Part shown: positions 13,566 through 28,932 of the stretch, piece by piece | Layout: every line of letters begins with the position of its first letter | Position numbering within the stretch: position 1 is the first letter of the stretch | Assembly (NCBI GenBank): GCA_030765865.1 | Contig: JAVCDK010000106.1 | Span: 1,828 to 33,827 of the forward strand | Direction: 5' to 3' | Length of the DNA stretch: 32,000 nt | Source: Candidatus Celaenobacter antarcticus | GTDB taxonomy: Bacteria > Cloacimonadota > Cloacimonadia > JGIOTU-2 | Notes under the pieces: model-generated | Databases searched by the model: none | Seen by the model: the letters and a program-made list of their open reading frames with translations, nothing else | Told to the model about the DNA's origin: nothing | Position numbers and translations under genes: made by a program

Positions 13566-14159
13566 TTACATTCCTATTTGAAAGCGTGCAAATCTTTTAA
13601 TGCTGATATTTTCACCCAGTTTCAATACTGCGTTGGAAATAAGCTCTTTTATAGTGATATCTTCATCCATTACAAGTGGTTGATCGAGCAGGCAATTCTC
13701 AGTATAATATTTTTTTAGTCGACCTTCAACGATCTTATCAACAATCTTTTCCGGTTTACCGGCTGTAAGAGCTTGCTCTTTATAAATTTCTTTTTCGTCT
13801 TCAATAATTTTAGGATCAATATCCTTTTCTGAAATAGCCATCGGATCGGTCGCTGCGATGTGCATTGCGATCTGATTTGCCATTTCCTGGAAATCATTAG
13901 TGCGTGCAACGAAATCTGTCTCACAGCTCAGTTCAAGCAGAACACCAAGTTTTGCGCCCGGATGAATATATGCATGAATAATGCCTTCACTGGAATCTCT
14001 GCTTGACTTCTTCTCAGCTTTTGCGATTCCTTTCTTGCGCAGGATCTTCACTGCTTCATCGACATTTCCATTTGCTTCGCCCAATGCTTTTTTGCATTCC
14101 ATCAGACCAACACTTGTTTTATCTCGTAACTCTTTAACTTGTTTTGCCGTTATTTCCAT
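13566..14159 (-). CDS. tsf: Translation elongation factor Ts (short form, 197 aa)
   Basis: N-terminal UBA-like ITAKQVKELRDKTSVGLMECKKAL and HPGAKLGVLLELSCETDFVART. RBS GGAG. Confidence 0.95.
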   Translation of the reverse strand: MEITAKQVKELRDKTSVGLMECKKALGEANGNVDEAVKILRKKGIAKAEKKSSRDSSEGIIHAYIHPGAKLGVLLELSCETDFVARTNDFQEMANQIAMHIAATDPMAISEKDIDPKIIEDEKEIYKEQALTAGKPEKIVDKIVEGRLKKYYTENCLLDQPLVMDEDITIKELISNAVLKLGENISIKRFARFQIGM

Positions 14160-14173
14160 AATAGCTCCGTATA

Positions 14174-15199
14174 TTATTTTTGATGAACCAATCCAAGATG
14201 GATCTTCAAGCCGCGTTTTGATGAGAATGTTTTACCACAATCGGGGCATTCAAAACGGGTTTCTTTCTTATCTTTTTTATCTTCTTTTGGCTCTTTTTTA
14301 ATGTTTTTTATTTTCTTTTCTTCTTTCTTTGATTTCTCTTCTTTTGGTTTTTTAGTCTCTTTGACTACTTCGGGTTCTTCAATCACTTCCTTTTCAACAA
14401 CTTTCTTAGTGACTTCGTCATCCTCTTTTTTGACTTCTACTTTTTCTTCTATAACAACTTTTTCTTTCCCATCTTTCTTTTCTGCATCAAAATCGGAAAT
14501 ATCTCCACCTTCAGCAGCGATCTTTTTACCTTCGATGACTGCGTTTGCCATTATATCACAAATAAGATTTATAGATTTCATTGCATCGTCATTACCTGGG
14601 ATCACGTAGTCGATGCCATCAGGATCTCCATTTGTATCAACAATTGCAATGATTGGAATCTTAAGATTTTTAGCTTCACTCACTGCATTTTTTTCATAGA
14701 CAATATCTGCAATAAATAAGGCTGCGGGTATTTCTTCCATATCACGAATTCCACCGAGAGCACGAAGGATTTTATCATACTTCCTTTGCATTTTGAGCAC
14801 TTCGAGTTTAGTGAATTTATTTATCTCACCGGTATCCTGTAGTTTTTCAAATTCTTCGATTTTTGAGATACTCTTTCGGATCGTTTTCAGATTTGTTAAT
14901 GTGCCACCATACCATCTGTTGCTGATAAAGAATTCATCACATTTTTCTGCAGCATTTTGAATGCCTTCTGAAACCTGCTTTTTCGTACCCACAAAAAGGA
15001 TTTTTTTACCTTTTGCAGCAAGTTCTCTGATGAAGTAATATGACTGATTGATGGCTTCAAGGGTTTGTTTAAGATCAATGATGTGAATCCCATTTCTTTT
15101 GATGAAGATGTATCTTTTCATCTTAGGATTCCAGCGTCGAGTTTGGTGACCAAAATGAACACCAGCCTCGAGAAGTCTTTTCATTTCAACGACACTCAT
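14174..15199 (-). CDS. rpsB: 30S ribosomal protein S2 with ~109-aa K/E-rich C-terminal extension ending in a C2H2 zinc finger
   Basis: S2 core: LLEAGVHFGHQTRRWNPKM, GGTLTN, VDTNGDPDGIDYVIPGNDDA. I prefer ATG at 15199 (MSVVEMKRLLEAG...) because GGAGGA sits 5 nt upstream; the longest ORF starts at 15238. The tail ends in RFECPDCGKTFSSKRGLKIHLGLVHQK. Confidence 0.93.
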   Translation of the reverse strand: MSVVEMKRLLEAGVHFGHQTRRWNPKMKRYIFIKRNGIHIIDLKQTLEAINQSYYFIRELAAKGKKILFVGTKKQVSEGIQNAAEKCDEFFISNRWYGGTLTNLKTIRKSISKIEEFEKLQDTGEINKFTKLEVLKMQRKYDKILRALGGIRDMEEIPAALFIADIVYEKNAVSEAKNLKIPIIAIVDTNGDPDGIDYVIPGNDDAMKSINLICDIMANAVIEGKKIAAEGGDISDFDAEKKDGKEKVVIEEKVEVKKEDDEVTKKVVEKEVIEEPEVVKETKKPKEEKSKKEEKKIKNIKKEPKEDKKDKKETRFECPDCGKTFSSKRGLKIHLGLVHQK

Positions 15200-15302
15200 G
15201 TGTGTCCTCCAACGGTTTATTATTTTAACTTCATCCACACTGCATATATTCGAATCTTTCGAACACCGTTTGCAGCTCTGAAGTTAATTGATTGAATATA
15301 TT

Positions 15303-15689
15303 TTATCTCTTTGAATACTGATATGCCTTACGTGCTTTTGCAAGTCCGTATTTCCTGCGTTCCTTCTCACGTGCATCACGGGTAAGAAGTCCTTCTTTTT
15401 TCAGGACTGCGCGCAGTTCAGGATCGTATTCCAAAAGGGCTCTGCTGATACCAAGACGGATTGCACCGGCTTGTCCGGAAAGTCCCCCACCACGCACATT
15501 TACCTTCATATCAAATCGATCTGATTGGTCGATAAGCTTGAAAGGTTCTTCTACGATCATCTCAAGGGTTTCTCGGCTGAGATAATCTTTCATAAGTTTT
15601 TTATTAATGATTCTTTTCCCGGTTCCTTTAGATAAACGAACACGTGCAACAGCGTTTTTACGCCTGCCAATTGCATCAAAATATTGCAT
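15303..15689 (-). CDS. rpsI: 30S ribosomal protein S9
   Basis: 128 aa. Contains [10 protein letters not shown] and [19 protein letters not shown], with the C-terminal [11 protein letters not shown]. Confidence 0.96.
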
Positions 15690-15706: not shown

Positions 15707-16138
15707 TTAAGAAATTTTAATTTCTTCAGGCTGTTGTGCCTGATGATTGTGGGCATTGCCTGTGTATATTTTCAATCGCTTTAGCATCCTATCACGAAGT
15801 TTGTTCTTGGGAAGCATACCTTTTACGGAATGATATATAATTTGTTCCGGTTTTTTTTCGCGCATCTGCCGGAAGGAAGTAATTCTCTGTCCACTTGGAT
15901 AACCGGAATACCGCTTGTATTCTTTTGCAAATTCTTTTTGACCTGTAACTTTTACTTTTTCTGCGTTTAATATTATTACAAAATCACCCATATCAAAGAA
16001 AGGAGTGAAAGCCGGTTTATGCTTTCCTCTCAGAAGTTTCGCAACTTTGGTAGATAATCTGCCAAGTACAGCATCTTCTGCGTTGATCACATACCAATGA
16101 TGCTCAATTTCATCGACTTTTGGCAATGTCGTTTTCAT
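15707..16138 (-). CDS. rplM: 50S ribosomal protein L13
   Basis: 143 aa. Contains [28 protein letters not shown] and the KGMLPKNKL motif. RBS TAGGAGA. Confidence 0.96.
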
Positions 16139-25443: not shown

Positions 25444-28400
25444 CTATCGTAATAAAATTATTTTACCAATATTTATACTATTGTTTTCATTAATTTTCAC
25501 AAAATATATTCCGTTTGGTGATTTTCTATTATGGCAGTCAAATCCATCCCAAATATACTGTTTGCTCTTATCATTTGAATTATCAAAAATTATCTCTTTC
25601 ACCAATTGTCCTTTGATATTATAAATTCCTGCAGAAAGATTTATTTCTGAATTTTCCTTTGAATAATAAGAGATAACTGTCGAGCCGGAAGAGGGTTGTG
25701 GATAGATGAGAAGTGAACCTTTGATGCCTGCGGGTTCTTCATCAACAGCATAATAAGGGTCAGGTGGATCGGTGGTATATTTTATGGTCAGTTCGTTTTC
25801 CAGAGGTGTGGCGCTTGCAGGATACATATCAGCATAAGTGTAGAGAACCCCATCGGACTGAATGAGATTTTCTATCCCAATTGTCGAGTAGTTACTCGTT
25901 GCGTCAGGATTATTTATCGTATGATAATTGCATTGTATCTCTCCATTGCCGCTTGCAGTAGGATAAAAAGCAGGATCGAATAGAATAAGCTCAAATTTCT
26001 CTACAGACGTATCATCGAACCTGTTAAAGCACTTGCTCCATTCTATTATGAATCTATTATTTACCTCATCATAATAATGGCATATCCTCATATCGTGATG
26101 GAAAACAGTGTCCACTACCGTATATGCTTCACCAATGAGATCATCCCAGTATGCACAGACCTGTCCATAAGGACCAAGCGCGGAAGGGATATCCCAGTTT
26201 CGGAAGTTCGTCCAGTCATTTGTAATGAACGAAATCCAGCCATTTGAGCATACTGTTATCTCGTCAAAAGCTTCATCGTAATAGGTAAATGTGAAGGGCA
26301 ATGGAATTGTGCTCGATTCATCATCAGCCATATAAATGACCTGACCCAAACCGCCTTCATCAGGATCGATTTCTATCCAACTATAAGTCGGGACTTCGTC
26401 ATAATCAACATCATAGCTGTCATAGGCATAATAACCGAATGCATCCGGCCCGGTTGGAGCAGTATTATCTACAGGACCGACCTCAAGAGAAAAATACACC
26501 TGTGTGATCCTGCCGTCAGCATCAATGAGATTGAGCTCAAAGGGAATATTCCTTCCTATGAAGCAATTGCTTTCTATACTTACATCAAACAATCCAATAG
26601 AAGTTGTTGTCATAGGCACAGCACCAAATGCATAATCAGCCGAAGTAATCGCTGCGGCATCGCTGTGTACTGCCAAAGTGCCATTAATACTCACTCCATC
26701 GAGAGAGCCGATGTTTTCGATCGTAATCTGTACCTCATCATTCTGTCCCGGTTCCAGCCATCCACTTGCCGAATTTACTATCACATCATTTACTTCAAAC
26801 AGAAGTGATGATGCAACCAGAGAGAACTTTGCGGTTGCACCGGTTGAGATATTTAGAGTAAATTCCAGGACCTGATTATCAGGACAAGCTGCATCGATTT
26901 CTATCTCATAATCCTGCTGGCTTGTTTCACCAGGAGAAATATCACCAAAATTTTTAGTTGGAGCTGTAACAGAAACCATCGAACTGCTCGAACTCAAAGT
27001 AGCTGACACATCCGAAGCTGTGGATGTCCCAAAATTTTTCAGTGTGAGATTAATATCCAAAGTACTTCCAGCTTGTAATGCGGAGGTTGCCGCATACTCA
27101 AATAACCCCACATCTGTTGCCTGCTCGAGAACAGCGATGGTATCAACAAGAGCTACAAAATTCGGAGATGTGATCACAAGCTCGATCTCTCCCGCAGTTT
27201 CTGAAGCAAACGGAATGATCGCGTGCCCGTTTTCAAGCATTGCAACTTCATAAAATTCATCAGCTTTCTTTGCAGTGACAATGCCTTCCTCGAGATTTGC
27301 GCAGGAGATATCAAGATGGTTCGTTCCAACTGTAACGCTTGCAGGTACTGTGCAATCAATATCTTCAGGTATGGTTGTCCACATAGTAAGCGTCGGATCA
27401 CCGAGAATGTTGTACACATGAAAATAAAATTCTACCTGATCACCTGCTGCTTGCTGCAAAGGGAAATTATGATAGAGTTCTATCTTTCCTCTCAGCACCG
27501 CTGAACCAAAATCATAGATGCCTTCATCCAGCAATCCATAATAGAAGCCGGAAAAAATAGAGTTATTCAACTTGGTGCTCGTATGCAAGTCTGAAGGACC
27601 GATAAACACCACACCGCCTTGCGGAGCAGTTGGAGTGCCAAGCTGGAGGATAGCTTCACCGAAACAGGGATCTGCAGAAGAATTGGCAAAATCACCGGTA
27701 TTACACACAAAAGATGTAATCACAGGTGTCAACAACCCATTACTTAAACTGCTCATATTATCCACATGGAATTCAGGATAATGCCAGCCGTTCGCATCTC
27801 CCCAACCGCGGTAGTTAAGAAATCCAATGCCGTCATTGATCCTGCTGATAATTTCTGACGTTCCAGGATAAATGCCTGGATAAAACACAGTATCAACCTG
27901 CGTAAATCCGTAATTCAGCATCTTATCTCTCAGCCATCGGGACACCTTGACCGGCGTACTTGGAGTTGGAGGGGTTGTACTGTAATTTCCTGCTACAACA
28001 AGCGCTTTTTTCAGCCAATCAGGGGTAGTAAGATACGGAGTTTTTTCATAAGAAATTACTTTATTGATGATCGTCCAAAGCTGGTTGATCTCATCGATGG
28101 ACATTCGCCCGATGATCAATTCAGGGAAATAATCCGAGCCGGCAAGCATCGTATACGGATGATCGCTGACATCGTTTTCTGCGCTATAATAAAATGAAGG
28201 TACCGCAAAGTAGTCATCCACATCACCTATCAGGAGTACATAATCAGGCGGCATTTCTGATGTATCATATACTTGCTGGATGTATGATTTAATATCATTT
28301 GCCGTTGTGCCTGTTTCAGTAAGGGTCGCCACTGTGCATTCGATCCCTTTTGCCTGCTTCCAGTTTATGAAATCCTGGATATAGTTTTCAAGCAATTGAT

Positions 28401-28932
28401 GGCATATGATGAGCATTTTTGAGGGCTGAACCGGGAGACCTGCAAGATAGGATTCGTCAAAATTATCTACAAGTTTTGGATAGAGCTGATAAAATGCTTT
28501 GGACAGATATTGAGGAACAGCTTGCGCATTTTGTGGTATTATTTCGAAGTTGAGTTTTTCAATTTTTGAATACGTGTGTTCTTTCTCATTATATACTTGT
28601 GTTTTTATCTGCAGAGTATGACCGCACAGTTCTCTCATGGTAAAGGAGTTGACCTTCTCGATCCTCGAGTTTTCGATCTCTTGCACATTCTTTAGAAATT
28701 TACCCTTTTCAGAATACTCCGATAAAGTGAAATCATGAATGACTATTTCGATATCATTTGATGGAAGTGCAATTGTTGTGAATGCATTTTCTGTCTCAGA
28801 TGATAAGTCGTTGTTATTTTCAAATTGGATTTGAATACTGTTTCCTTTTGAGGAATAAGTAAACATGTCCTTTGCGTGAAGCAGGTTCATTGCACACATG
28901 AGAATAACAGCAATAAGAAATACTTTTTTCAT
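25444..28932 (-). CDS. Gingipain-like peptidase C25 family protein with T9SS type-A C-terminal sorting domain
   Basis: Signal peptide MKKVFLIAVILMCAMNLLHA. C25 motifs YVLLIGDVD, NYRGWGDANGW and SFVCNTGDF. CARDB-like Ig domains. C-terminal GIYNIKGQLVKEI...NGIYFVKI...GKIILLR. Confidence 0.85.
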   Translation of the reverse strand: MKKVFLIAVILMCAMNLLHAKDMFTYSSKGNSIQIQFENNNDLSSETENAFTTIALPSNDIEIVIHDFTLSEYSEKGKFLKNVQEIENSRIEKVNSFTMRELCGHTLQIKTQVYNEKEHTYSKIEKLNFEIIPQNAQAVPQYLSKAFYQLYPKLVDNFDESYLAGLPVQPSKMLIICHQLLENYIQDFINWKQAKGIECTVATLTETGTTANDIKSYIQQVYDTSEMPPDYVLLIGDVDDYFAVPSFYYSAENDVSDHPYTMLAGSDYFPELIIGRMSIDEINQLWTIINKVISYEKTPYLTTPDWLKKALVVAGNYSTTPPTPSTPVKVSRWLRDKMLNYGFTQVDTVFYPGIYPGTSEIISRINDGIGFLNYRGWGDANGWHYPEFHVDNMSSLSNGLLTPVITSFVCNTGDFANSSADPCFGEAILQLGTPTAPQGGVVFIGPSDLHTSTKLNNSIFSGFYYGLLDEGIYDFGSAVLRGKIELYHNFPLQQAAGDQVEFYFHVYNILGDPTLTMWTTIPEDIDCTVPASVTVGTNHLDISCANLEEGIVTAKKADEFYEVAMLENGHAIIPFASETAGEIELVITSPNFVALVDTIAVLEQATDVGLFEYAATSALQAGSTLDINLTLKNFGTSTASDVSATLSSSSSMVSVTAPTKNFGDISPGETSQQDYEIEIDAACPDNQVLEFTLNISTGATAKFSLVASSLLFEVNDVIVNSASGWLEPGQNDEVQITIENIGSLDGVSINGTLAVHSDAAAITSADYAFGAVPMTTTSIGLFDVSIESNCFIGRNIPFELNLIDADGRITQVYFSLEVGPVDNTAPTGPDAFGYYAYDSYDVDYDEVPTYSWIEIDPDEGGLGQVIYMADDESSTIPLPFTFTYYDEAFDEITVCSNGWISFITNDWTNFRNWDIPSALGPYGQVCAYWDDLIGEAYTVVDTVFHHDMRICHYYDEVNNRFIIEWSKCFNRFDDTSVEKFELILFDPAFYPTASGNGEIQCNYHTINNPDATSNYSTIGIENLIQSDGVLYTYADMYPASATPLENELTIKYTTDPPDPYYAVDEEPAGIKGSLLIYPQPSSGSTVISYYSKENSEINLSAGIYNIKGQLVKEIIFDNSNDKSKQYIWDGFDCHNRKSPNGIYFVKINENNSINIGKIILLR

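Follow-up and report, generated by a model that had tools for sequence, protein, structure and literature searches.

A ribosomal protein S2 that ends in a classical C2H2 zinc finger in one branch of the Cloacimonadota

The S2-zinc finger fusion

The rpsB gene, encoding ribosomal protein S2 (uS2), was analyzed in a stretch of 32,000 nucleotides (nt) from Candidatus Celaenobacter antarcticus (contig JAVCDK010000106.1, positions 1,828 to 33,827; this whole stretch is referred to as the window). The gene (14174..15199, minus strand; 341 aa plus the stop) encodes a uS2 core followed by a linker and a zinc finger, and this combination is a real, selected and unusual domain fusion. Its anatomy and conservation can be given with near certainty: a uS2 core, an acidic disordered tether of around 70–100 residues and a C2H2 finger, in one branch of Cloacimonadota. 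A sequence-only reading of the window had previously proposed a single open reading frame (ORF) joining uS2, a low-complexity linker and a classical C2H2 finger. This was confirmed, the ORF being uninterrupted and the Pfam models for S2 and zf-C2H2 both being matched above their cut-offs. The product is 100% identical to MDP8314948.1 (P0001), from the metagenome-assembled Candidatus Celaenobacter antarcticus of the phylum Cloacimonadota, whose public database name is only '30S ribosomal protein S2'.

The uS2 core (Pfam Ribosomal_S2; 14528..15175, minus strand) was delimited by hidden Markov model (HMM) scores, an AlphaFold2 (AF2) model and Foldseek. It reached 307.9 bits against PF00318 (cut-off 26.1) and 327.6 bits against TIGR01011, rpsB_bact (cut-off 76.3). 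The AF2 model, for which a 71-sequence alignment was used as input, showed a two-domain fold made of an alpha/beta globular domain and a coiled-coil hairpin, with predicted local distance difference test (pLDDT) values mostly of 85–96. Foldseek superposed this core on solved bacterial uS2 from E. coli, S. aureus, Thermus and Mycobacterium ribosomes, with target-normalised template modelling (TM) scores of 0.94–0.96, root mean square deviations (rmsd) of 1.2–1.6 Å and 45–53% identity. The residues F32 and H18, which dock bS1, and D188, N203, D204 and D205 of the Zn pocket were invariant in the 71-sequence alignment; these roles have been described previously (PMC4288201, PMC10123108). Since both groups of residues are invariant, the tail finger would probably add to bS1 docking instead of replacing it.

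The core terminates with ...NAVIEGKKIAAEGG and is followed by 109 aa (14177-14503) that are Glu/Lys-rich and end in FECPDCGKTFSSKRGLKIHLGLVHQK directly before the stop; the tail length and the Cys/His spacing had been read correctly before. The first part of this tail is a low-complexity linker of about 83 aa, rich in Glu, Lys and Val, which was assigned from its composition and AF2 pLDDT (14255..14503, minus strand); pLDDT was below 50 for residues 236-312, which are predicted to be disordered. The peptide GLKIHLGLVHQK is an example from the linker/finger tail. A Pfam match to GAGA_bind located in the low-complexity linker was dismissed, as it scored 18.5 bits against a cut-off of 26.6.

Identity and fold of the finger

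The single finger (FECPDCGKTFSSKRGLKIHLGLVHQK; 14177..14254, minus strand) constitutes the C-terminal end of the protein and was defined by PF00096, AF2, Foldseek and conservation. The four predicted Zn ligands were read from the sequence as Cys-1 (TGC, 14246..14248), Cys-2 (14237-14239), His-1 (14198-14200) and His-2 (14183-14185), all on the minus strand, and their spacing is F-x-C-x2-C-x3-F-x5-L-x2-H-x4-H, i.e., C-x2-C-x12-H-x4-H. The family signature is [FY]xCxxCxKx[FL]xSKRGLKIHxGLVHxK. Against the PF00096 (zf-C2H2) profile, the whole protein scored 26.9 bits and the tail by itself 28.2 bits (E = 2.3e-6), its curated cut-off being 25.2. In the AF2 model, the disordered linker was followed by a C-terminal strand-strand-helix (beta-beta-alpha) unit with pLDDT of 72–89, or 84.7 when the finger was folded alone.

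Foldseek matched this unit to the fingers of Kaiso, CTCF, Tramtrack, Aart and SALL4 with rmsd of 0.5–1.7 Å and probabilities of 0.99–1.0, the best superposition being 0.5 Å over 27 residues (Kaiso, CTCF); the E-values of these matches are not significant because the query has only 34 aa. A profile built from the finger recognized eukaryotic C2H2 proteins both in the PDB sequence set and in a library of 1.84 billion proteins. As modelled, the finger is of the classical (TFIIIA/Kruppel-type) C2H2 class and is predicted to bind zinc.

Two double-stranded RNA-binding finger families were rejected, since zf-C2H2_jaz (PF12171) gave 15.1–16.1 bits against a gathering score of 22.6, and zf-met (PF12874) gave 12.2–14.1 bits against 21.2. 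The Ros/MucR proteins, whose spacing is C-x2-C-x9-H-x3/4-H (PMC9779718), were also considered. Membership in this family was rejected on the basis of the 12-residue spacer, the domain of about 26 aa and the lack of any ROS_MUCR match at E <= 1 when the whole protein and the tail were compared with Pfam. The earlier view that the finger is classical and not of the Ros/MucR type was therefore upheld.

Distribution, conservation and selection

The S2 homolog set consisted of the 120 best matches in a collection of 5.8 billion proteins. All of the best 41 end in the finger and none of the next 79 does; those finger-less matches with a named source, a minority of the 79, all belong to Cloacimonadota or Cloacimonas. 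When 185,579 species-representative genomes from GTDB were scanned with the finger pattern, 14 genomes were found, all of them Cloacimonadota. The finger was in frame with the S2 core in every locus containing the whole gene (12 of 12), and in the other two genomes (L009 and L014) the contig ends inside the gene. A scan of metagenomes yielded 21 further finger loci, 20 of them in frame.

The four Zn-ligand residues were invariant in all 41 homolog clusters and in 36 loci, which settles in the affirmative whether the Cys and His positions are conserved in relatives. Nine columns were invariant across the 41 clusters, namely the two Cys, the two His and S, R, G, I and L, and the residues F, K, K, L, K and G of the finger together with the final K were at least 90% conserved. 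The helix positions -1, 1, 2, 3, 5 and 6 are occupied by S, K, R, G, K and I, respectively. The invariant residues are encoded by many synonymous codons (four for Arg, five and five for Leu, three for Ile and three to four for Gly) and are therefore under purifying selection. In agreement with this, when identity was binned by core divergence, that of the finger (0.71–0.96) tracked that of the core (0.68–0.93), with the linker at 0.25–0.64.

When the S2 cores were placed in a neighbour-joining tree, all 41 finger bearers fell into one clade without any finger-less sequence inside it, which points to one gain and no sampled loss. This branch includes Candidatus Celaenobacter and MAG213-F140, the type genome of 'Clade B' of Cloacimonadia, a branch from natural anoxic waters and sediments.

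The same data bear on whether the fusion could be an artefact, produced by the loss of a stop codon, by a chimeric assembly or by Cys and His residues falling into this pattern by chance within a low-complexity tail. Such an origin would be favored by three contigs in which rpsB is split into a truncated S2 and a small finger ORF (L034, L047 and L048). In L034 the core and an A-run each contain frameshifts, and L047 and L048 carry A5 instead of A6 at 14426-14431 (T6 on the plus strand), giving a 271-aa S2 and a 70-aa finger ORF. However, compared with the window, L047 and L048 have 3 substitutions and 6–7 single-base indels in 1.3–2.7 kb; five indels are common to both, and four of these fall inside rpsI, which is broken as a result. 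The split copies are thus products of error-prone assemblies and not a separate gene, because their many single-base indels also disrupt rpsI. By contrast, the identical 341-aa protein is recorded on 22 contigs of up to 288 kb, the other loci are in frame across many studies, and the motif scores above its Pfam cut-off and is under selection. No stop or frameshift between the S2 core and the tail was found in independent good-quality assemblies, which refute an artefact and leave it a practically negligible probability.

Some of the split forms have been deposited as proteins, including the 70-aa finger ORF (P0121) and the 271-aa S2 forms (P0275 and P0280). Programmed frameshifting or transcriptional slippage in the Lys-coding A-runs was rejected as a source of such forms, as the runs have at most eight A, their positions are not conserved and the split contigs are rich in indels.

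Searches with the finger alone were less informative. A word-index search with 43 aa returned a single 70-aa fragment, by a method that is ill-suited to short queries. When 1.84 billion representatives were searched exhaustively with a profile, 25,769 matches were obtained, of which the top 150 were all long multi-finger proteins, presumably eukaryotic; it says little about other bacterial carriers of the finger because the scores of many fingers add up. In the literature searched, a fusion of S2 with a C2H2 finger was not found, and the two papers dealing with the genomes of these organisms (PMC8542988, PMC12590816) mention neither S2 nor zinc fingers.

The linker and the S2 tails of the phylum

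Across the clade the linker varies from 67 to 101 aa and contains 30% E, 25% K and 9% V, with a median net charge of -8. Its earlier description as K/E-rich was right as to the two residues and incomplete as to the charge, which is net acidic. This charge is unevenly distributed, the core-proximal half being acidic (median -10) and the finger-proximal half mildly basic (+3). The 15 residues preceding the finger have net charges from -7 to +4 across the clade and are basic in many members.

The length of the protein had also been presented as exceeding the 240–260 aa that are normal for S2. Its 341 aa do so, although the homolog matches range from 252 to 428 aa. Since long S2 tails are the rule in this phylum, the anomaly is the finger and not the length. 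The finger-less S2 proteins (P0042-P0120) have tails of 20–196 aa, and the long ones are net basic, with a median charge of +13. Because these finger-less relatives carry long net-basic tails, an S2 tail that contacts nucleic acids is suggested to be an older trait of the phylum.

The long finger-less tails (P0042-P0120; loci L040-L046) consist of Lys/Thr/Ala/Pro-rich repeats (KKTxKK...), and many finger-less tails share the terminal peptide ...EEKPKKATKKTEKEA. Judging from their sequences, this suggests that the finger-less tails may also have a conserved terminal element.

Putative function of the finger

uS2 lies on the 30S subunit's back side at the head/body hinge, where it contacts h26 and h35-37. 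Together with bS18, bS21 and the 3' end of 16S ribosomal RNA (rRNA) it forms the messenger RNA (mRNA) exit channel, in which the helix of the Shine-Dalgarno (SD) and anti-SD sequences docks, and it is the main anchor of bS1 (PMC10931766, PMC10123108, PMC4288201). The sequence-only reading had placed the finger near the mRNA entry side; this location was wrong, as uS2 is found on the rear face of the 30S subunit at the exit channel (PMC10123108, PMC10931766). SD motifs are present upstream of most genes in the window, and therefore the SD machinery of the exit channel is in use in this organism. The accompanying suggestion that the finger affects mRNA recruitment is possible.

In the mechanism that we propose, the uS2 core would join the 30S subunit as usual, on the solvent side and at the head/body hinge. 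The acidic tether, repelled by rRNA, would hold the small basic finger out in solution and let it sweep the solvent side of the subunit; fully extended, it would measure about 25–30 nm. Contact with a conserved nucleic-acid target would be made through the basic helix face (S-K-R-G-L-K-I-H, with its K, R and K), the CGK lysine and the Lys at the C-terminus, all of them invariant or nearly so. The preferred target would be RNA, either the mRNA stretch that emerges 5' of the ribosome or a surface made of rRNA, or of RNA and protein, close to the exit/bS1 platform, and the finger might serve as a second mRNA- or partner-capturing arm alongside bS1. We therefore put forward, tentatively and as something short of probable, that the finger is a tethered module binding nucleic acid, for which the most plausible ligand would be RNA in the vicinity of the exit/bS1 platform or mRNA in its 5' part.

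Several points weigh against this proposal. Any ligand of the finger is putative, and a lone classical finger is usually a weak binder of nucleic acids. For base-specific reading of DNA, Gly at helix +3 and Ile at +6 are unusual. Instead of acting as a spacer, the acidic tether could bend back onto the basic finger and cause auto-inhibition. Moreover, the conserved exposed hydrophobic residues (I, L, L and V) would also suit a protein interface.

This last point leads to a rather unlikely alternative, in which the finger is a protein-protein adaptor that docks a conserved protein such as bS1, bS21, bS18, RNA polymerase, NusA, a hibernation factor or a neighbouring ribosome. Nearly all of the surface residues of the finger, including the exposed I18, L20, L22 and V23, are invariant or nearly so, as would fit a fixed macromolecular interface; in addition, uS2 is located at the bS1 binding site, and zinc fingers from the trypanosome RNA-editing complex 9dei are among the closest matches by fold. 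On the other hand, it is with the basic helix face and the CGK lysine that classical fingers contact phosphates, the closest matches in sequence and fold are mostly DNA-bound fingers, and the data name no partner.

In another reading, the finger would bind double-stranded DNA, tethering translating ribosomes to the nucleoid or to the transcribed gene and aiding the coupling of transcription and translation. The nearest fingers in sequence and fold are the DNA-binding ones of Aart, Kaiso, CTCF, SALL4 and Tramtrack, and single fingers with basic flanks are able to bind DNA, GAGA being the example cited (PMC3541406). The 15 residues before the finger are basic in many members of the clade, but not consistently (-7 to +4), and the linker as a whole is acidic. 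Since Gly at +3 and Ile at +6 are also poor base readers and the data lend no support to a target site, binding of this type seems decidedly unlikely.

The rpsB leader and autoregulation

The rpsB start is almost certainly the ATG at 15199, judging from a GGAGG located 7–11 nt upstream and from the homologs, all of which begin with MSVVEMK. This SD sequence (15206..15210, minus strand; positions -11..-7) is invariant in the finger clade. The mechanical ORF is longer (14174..15238, minus strand), running uninterrupted for 354 aa when counted from a GTG. The 13 extra codons between GTG and ATG (VDEVKIINRWRTH, 15200-15238) are translated leader RNA, and their apparent conservation is due to RNA structure and the SD sequence.

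The intergenic leader between rpsI and rpsB (103 nt; 15200..15302, minus strand) is a conserved structured RNA. Its three helices (P1-P2-P3) are nested, its internal loop has the invariant sequence CGGUG, and an AACCGU that is likewise invariant lies immediately 5' of the SD sequence. AACCGU is complementary to the region of the CGGUG loop over 6 bp in the finger clade (AACGGU/ACCGUU), with no covariation, and this pairing might form a pseudoknot or an SD-occluding switch.

A total of 23 leaders, 16 from the finger clade and seven from finger-less Cloacimonadota, were aligned. With a structure given by hand, 97.8% of the cells pair in the 16 finger-clade leaders, compared with 27–43% when the partners were slid, and seven pairs show changes on both sides as compensatory support. 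The seven finger-less Cloacimonadota have the same leader architecture, with different P1, P2 and P3 sequences. Unconstrained folding of single sequences gave nested P1-P2-P3 helices in nine of ten leaders (the seven finger-less ones and those of the window, L010 and L012), and a less regular outer helix in the tenth, L045. A covariance model built from the finger-clade leaders alone detected four of the seven finger-less leaders in the correct position (E = 1e-4, 0.012, 0.44 and 0.58), two of these matches being weak. RNAalifold applied to a MAFFT alignment of all 23 leaders recovered P3 alone, because P1 and P2 were misaligned between the clades.

No known RNA family was found with Rfam in the window or in the rpsB leader, and the table of Eckert and Weinberg (2020) includes no S2 leader for this phylum. 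Upstream of rpsB, the leader is present in L001-L035 and L040-L046 across Cloacimonadota. It is a candidate for a new uS2 autoregulatory RNA, which belongs to the regulation of the gene and not to the finger.

uS2 is an autogenous repressor in E. coli (PMC10931766), and the finger could serve the same purpose if free S2 read the rpsB leader through it and repressed translation of rpsB-tsf, as had been suggested from the sequence. Besides the E. coli precedent, the conserved structured leader directly upstream of rpsB, with its SD-adjacent complementary element, fits such a role. However, the complete architecture (P1-P2-P3, CGGUG and AACCGU) is also found in seven Cloacimonadota with finger-less S2. 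It follows that the leader is older than the finger and does not depend on it; this speaks against a requirement for the finger in autoregulation and makes this function improbable.

Viral fingers and the origin of the fusion

A tblastn search with the finger against GenBank phage records produced weak, repeated matches (H2-H16; E 0.03–0.9). The genes matched in Thermococcus prieurii virus 1 and mycobacteriophage harman carry a C2H2 annotation, those of Halorubrum and Halobacterium viruses (haloarchaeal tailed viruses) are named 'Zn finger' or 'zinc-finger domain' proteins, and those of further mycobacteriophages and of Haloarcula viruses are labelled hypothetical. Single fingers of the classical type thus recur in the mobilome of prokaryotes.

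A further finger is encoded in the 85.6-kb viral contig IMGVR_UViG_3300028883_000041, which shares its metagenome of origin (JGI sample) with the S2-finger contig L024. Its 94-aa protein (L036 2794-3078, plus strand, equivalent to L037 10001-10285) begins with a basic N-terminus, continues with an acidic stretch rich in E and V, and has at its C-terminus a finger, FICDVCGKELSSKRGLNIHKTRMHS, with the S2-tail signature CGKELSSKRGLNIH. The S2-finger HMM gave this viral finger 38.5 bits, compared with 35.3 for the best of 3,102 fingers from the top multi-finger library proteins. Although suggestive, a lead of only 3 bits over the top eukaryotic finger was not accepted as proof that the 94-aa protein is a relative or decoy of the S2 tail. 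In GenBank, Methanosarcina virus MetMV provides the best match to this protein. The same contig also encodes a family B DNA polymerase and an N6/N4 methyltransferase, and a 70% identical relative of 89 aa (P0273) of the viral protein was found.

On these sequence comparisons, capture of the finger from the mobilome would be reasonable but unproven. Alternatively, the finger could be an evolutionary passenger of little present function, either a small C2H2 gene taken up from a mobile element or a zinc store, and be retained only because its loss brings no advantage. The small C2H2 fingers of archaeal viruses, mycobacteriophages and the uncultivated viral contig make such a capture plausible; nevertheless, a finger that has not been lost in 41 clusters and about 35 loci, that is under codon-level purifying selection and that is conserved as much as the ribosomal core is very improbably a passenger.

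In a broader scheme, every 30S subunit of the clade would be a 'specialised ribosome' bearing a tethered eukaryote- or virus-type reader, specific for the sequence or structure of nucleic acids, which would choose or place particular mRNAs or link the ribosome to DNA under transcription or to RNA polymerase. The prokaryotic mobilome would be the source from which the finger was captured, and free viral copies of the tail could compete for its target. Taken as a whole, this scheme is unlikely.

Genomic context

The gene lies in a cluster with the order rplM-rpsI-rpsB-tsf-pyrH-frr, which is identical in finger-less Cloacimonadota loci; it is the ordinary rpsB of the organism in an ordinary ribosomal gene cluster. 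rplM (15707-16138) and rpsI (15303-15689) are located upstream of rpsB on the same minus strand, and tsf (13566..14159, minus strand), which begins 14 nt past the rpsB stop and has its own GGAG, encodes a short EF-Ts of 197 aa. EF-Ts has 196–197 aa here and in L042, L044, L045 and L046, and 293 aa in L040, L041 and L043.

Two ORFs antisense to the rpsB tail, of 102 aa (14301-14609, plus strand) and 106 aa (13981-14301, plus strand), are Ser/Phe-rich and of low complexity, and were taken to be shadows of the Lys/Glu-coding strand and not genes. Other neighbours in the window are topA, secA and a peptidase with Por_Secre_tail. The latter (25444-28932, minus strand) is a C25 (gingipain-type) peptidase of 1162 aa, and in Pfam Por_Secre_tail is a secretion-system C-terminal sorting domain.

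Significance and comparison with known systems

Classical C2H2 fingers are the hallmark DNA and RNA readers of eukaryotes, and here one is found inside a universal and essential ribosomal protein, under selection throughout one branch of a phylum. Should its ligand prove to be mRNA, rRNA, DNA or a factor, the finger would represent a new bacterial route for adding function at the mRNA-exit/bS1 platform, where initiation is decided. The S2-finger also offers a clean natural case for the entry and persistence of classical fingers in bacteria, for which archaeal viruses and phages with similar fingers are a possible source. Moreover, its function can be tested without culturing the organism.

The S2 finger resembles the eukaryotic C2H2 fingers in its spacing, its F/F/L hydrophobic core and its beta-beta-alpha model. 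Its EKxFxCPxCGKxF stretch is close to the animal linker-plus-hairpin consensus TGEKPYKCPECGKSF, and the hairpin half (KEKRFECPECGKTFS) is strikingly similar to the animal consensus TGEKPYKCPECGKSFS, whereas the helix half is unique to the S2-finger family. It differs from them in being a lone finger without an array, at the extreme C-terminus of a ribosomal protein in a bacterium, and in having a distinct signature (SKRGLKIHxGLVHxK, with Gly at +3, Ile at +6 and H-x4-H).

Fingers of the classical type are reported to be nearly absent from bacteria, at about 0.003% of bacterial proteins (PMC3541406). With the Ros/MucR proteins the S2 finger shares a bacterial Cys2His2 zinc site and the presence of one finger per protein; by contrast, its spacer has 12 residues, its folded unit comprises about 26 aa and the protein stops two residues past the last His. 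The C2H2 proteins of archaeal viruses and phages (e.g., AFV1p06) are also single classical-type fingers in prokaryotic mobile elements, but they are small, free-standing and without fusion to a ribosomal protein.

The core matches bacterial uS2 in its HMM scores, its two-domain fold, its position directly upstream of tsf and all of the bS1-docking and Zn-pocket residues. The solved bacterial uS2 chains are modelled to about 215–235 residues and have no folded C-terminal domain, whereas this S2 has around 80 additional residues predicted as disordered and a zinc finger.

Extensions of uS2 are known in other lineages. In eukaryotes, uS2 (RPSA) is extended at the C-terminus by an acidic, disordered segment, located on the solvent side of the small subunit. 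Lineage-specific extensions of organellar uS2 are the subject of comparison with a 2026 preprint on the Chlamydomonas chloroplast ribosome (bioRxiv 10.64898/2026.08.28.747797). Both the eukaryotic and the organellar extensions are without a zinc finger and of independent origin.

Among bacteria, NF008966 (PRK12311), an S2 model of 334 positions that is longer than plain S2, gave 282.6 bits (cut-off 526), with a match that takes in the core and a portion of the linker and ends before the finger. The NCBIfam model NF051451, '30S ribosomal protein S2, sunset domain variant', gave 274.8 bits (cut-off 710) and covered profile positions 1-281 of 382, corresponding to the core and part of the linker. 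The protein was not assigned to this variant, given that the score is far under the cut-off, the match ends before the finger and the appended module differs. Both models are nonetheless precedents for a bacterial uS2 that is extended by a linker and a C-terminal module.

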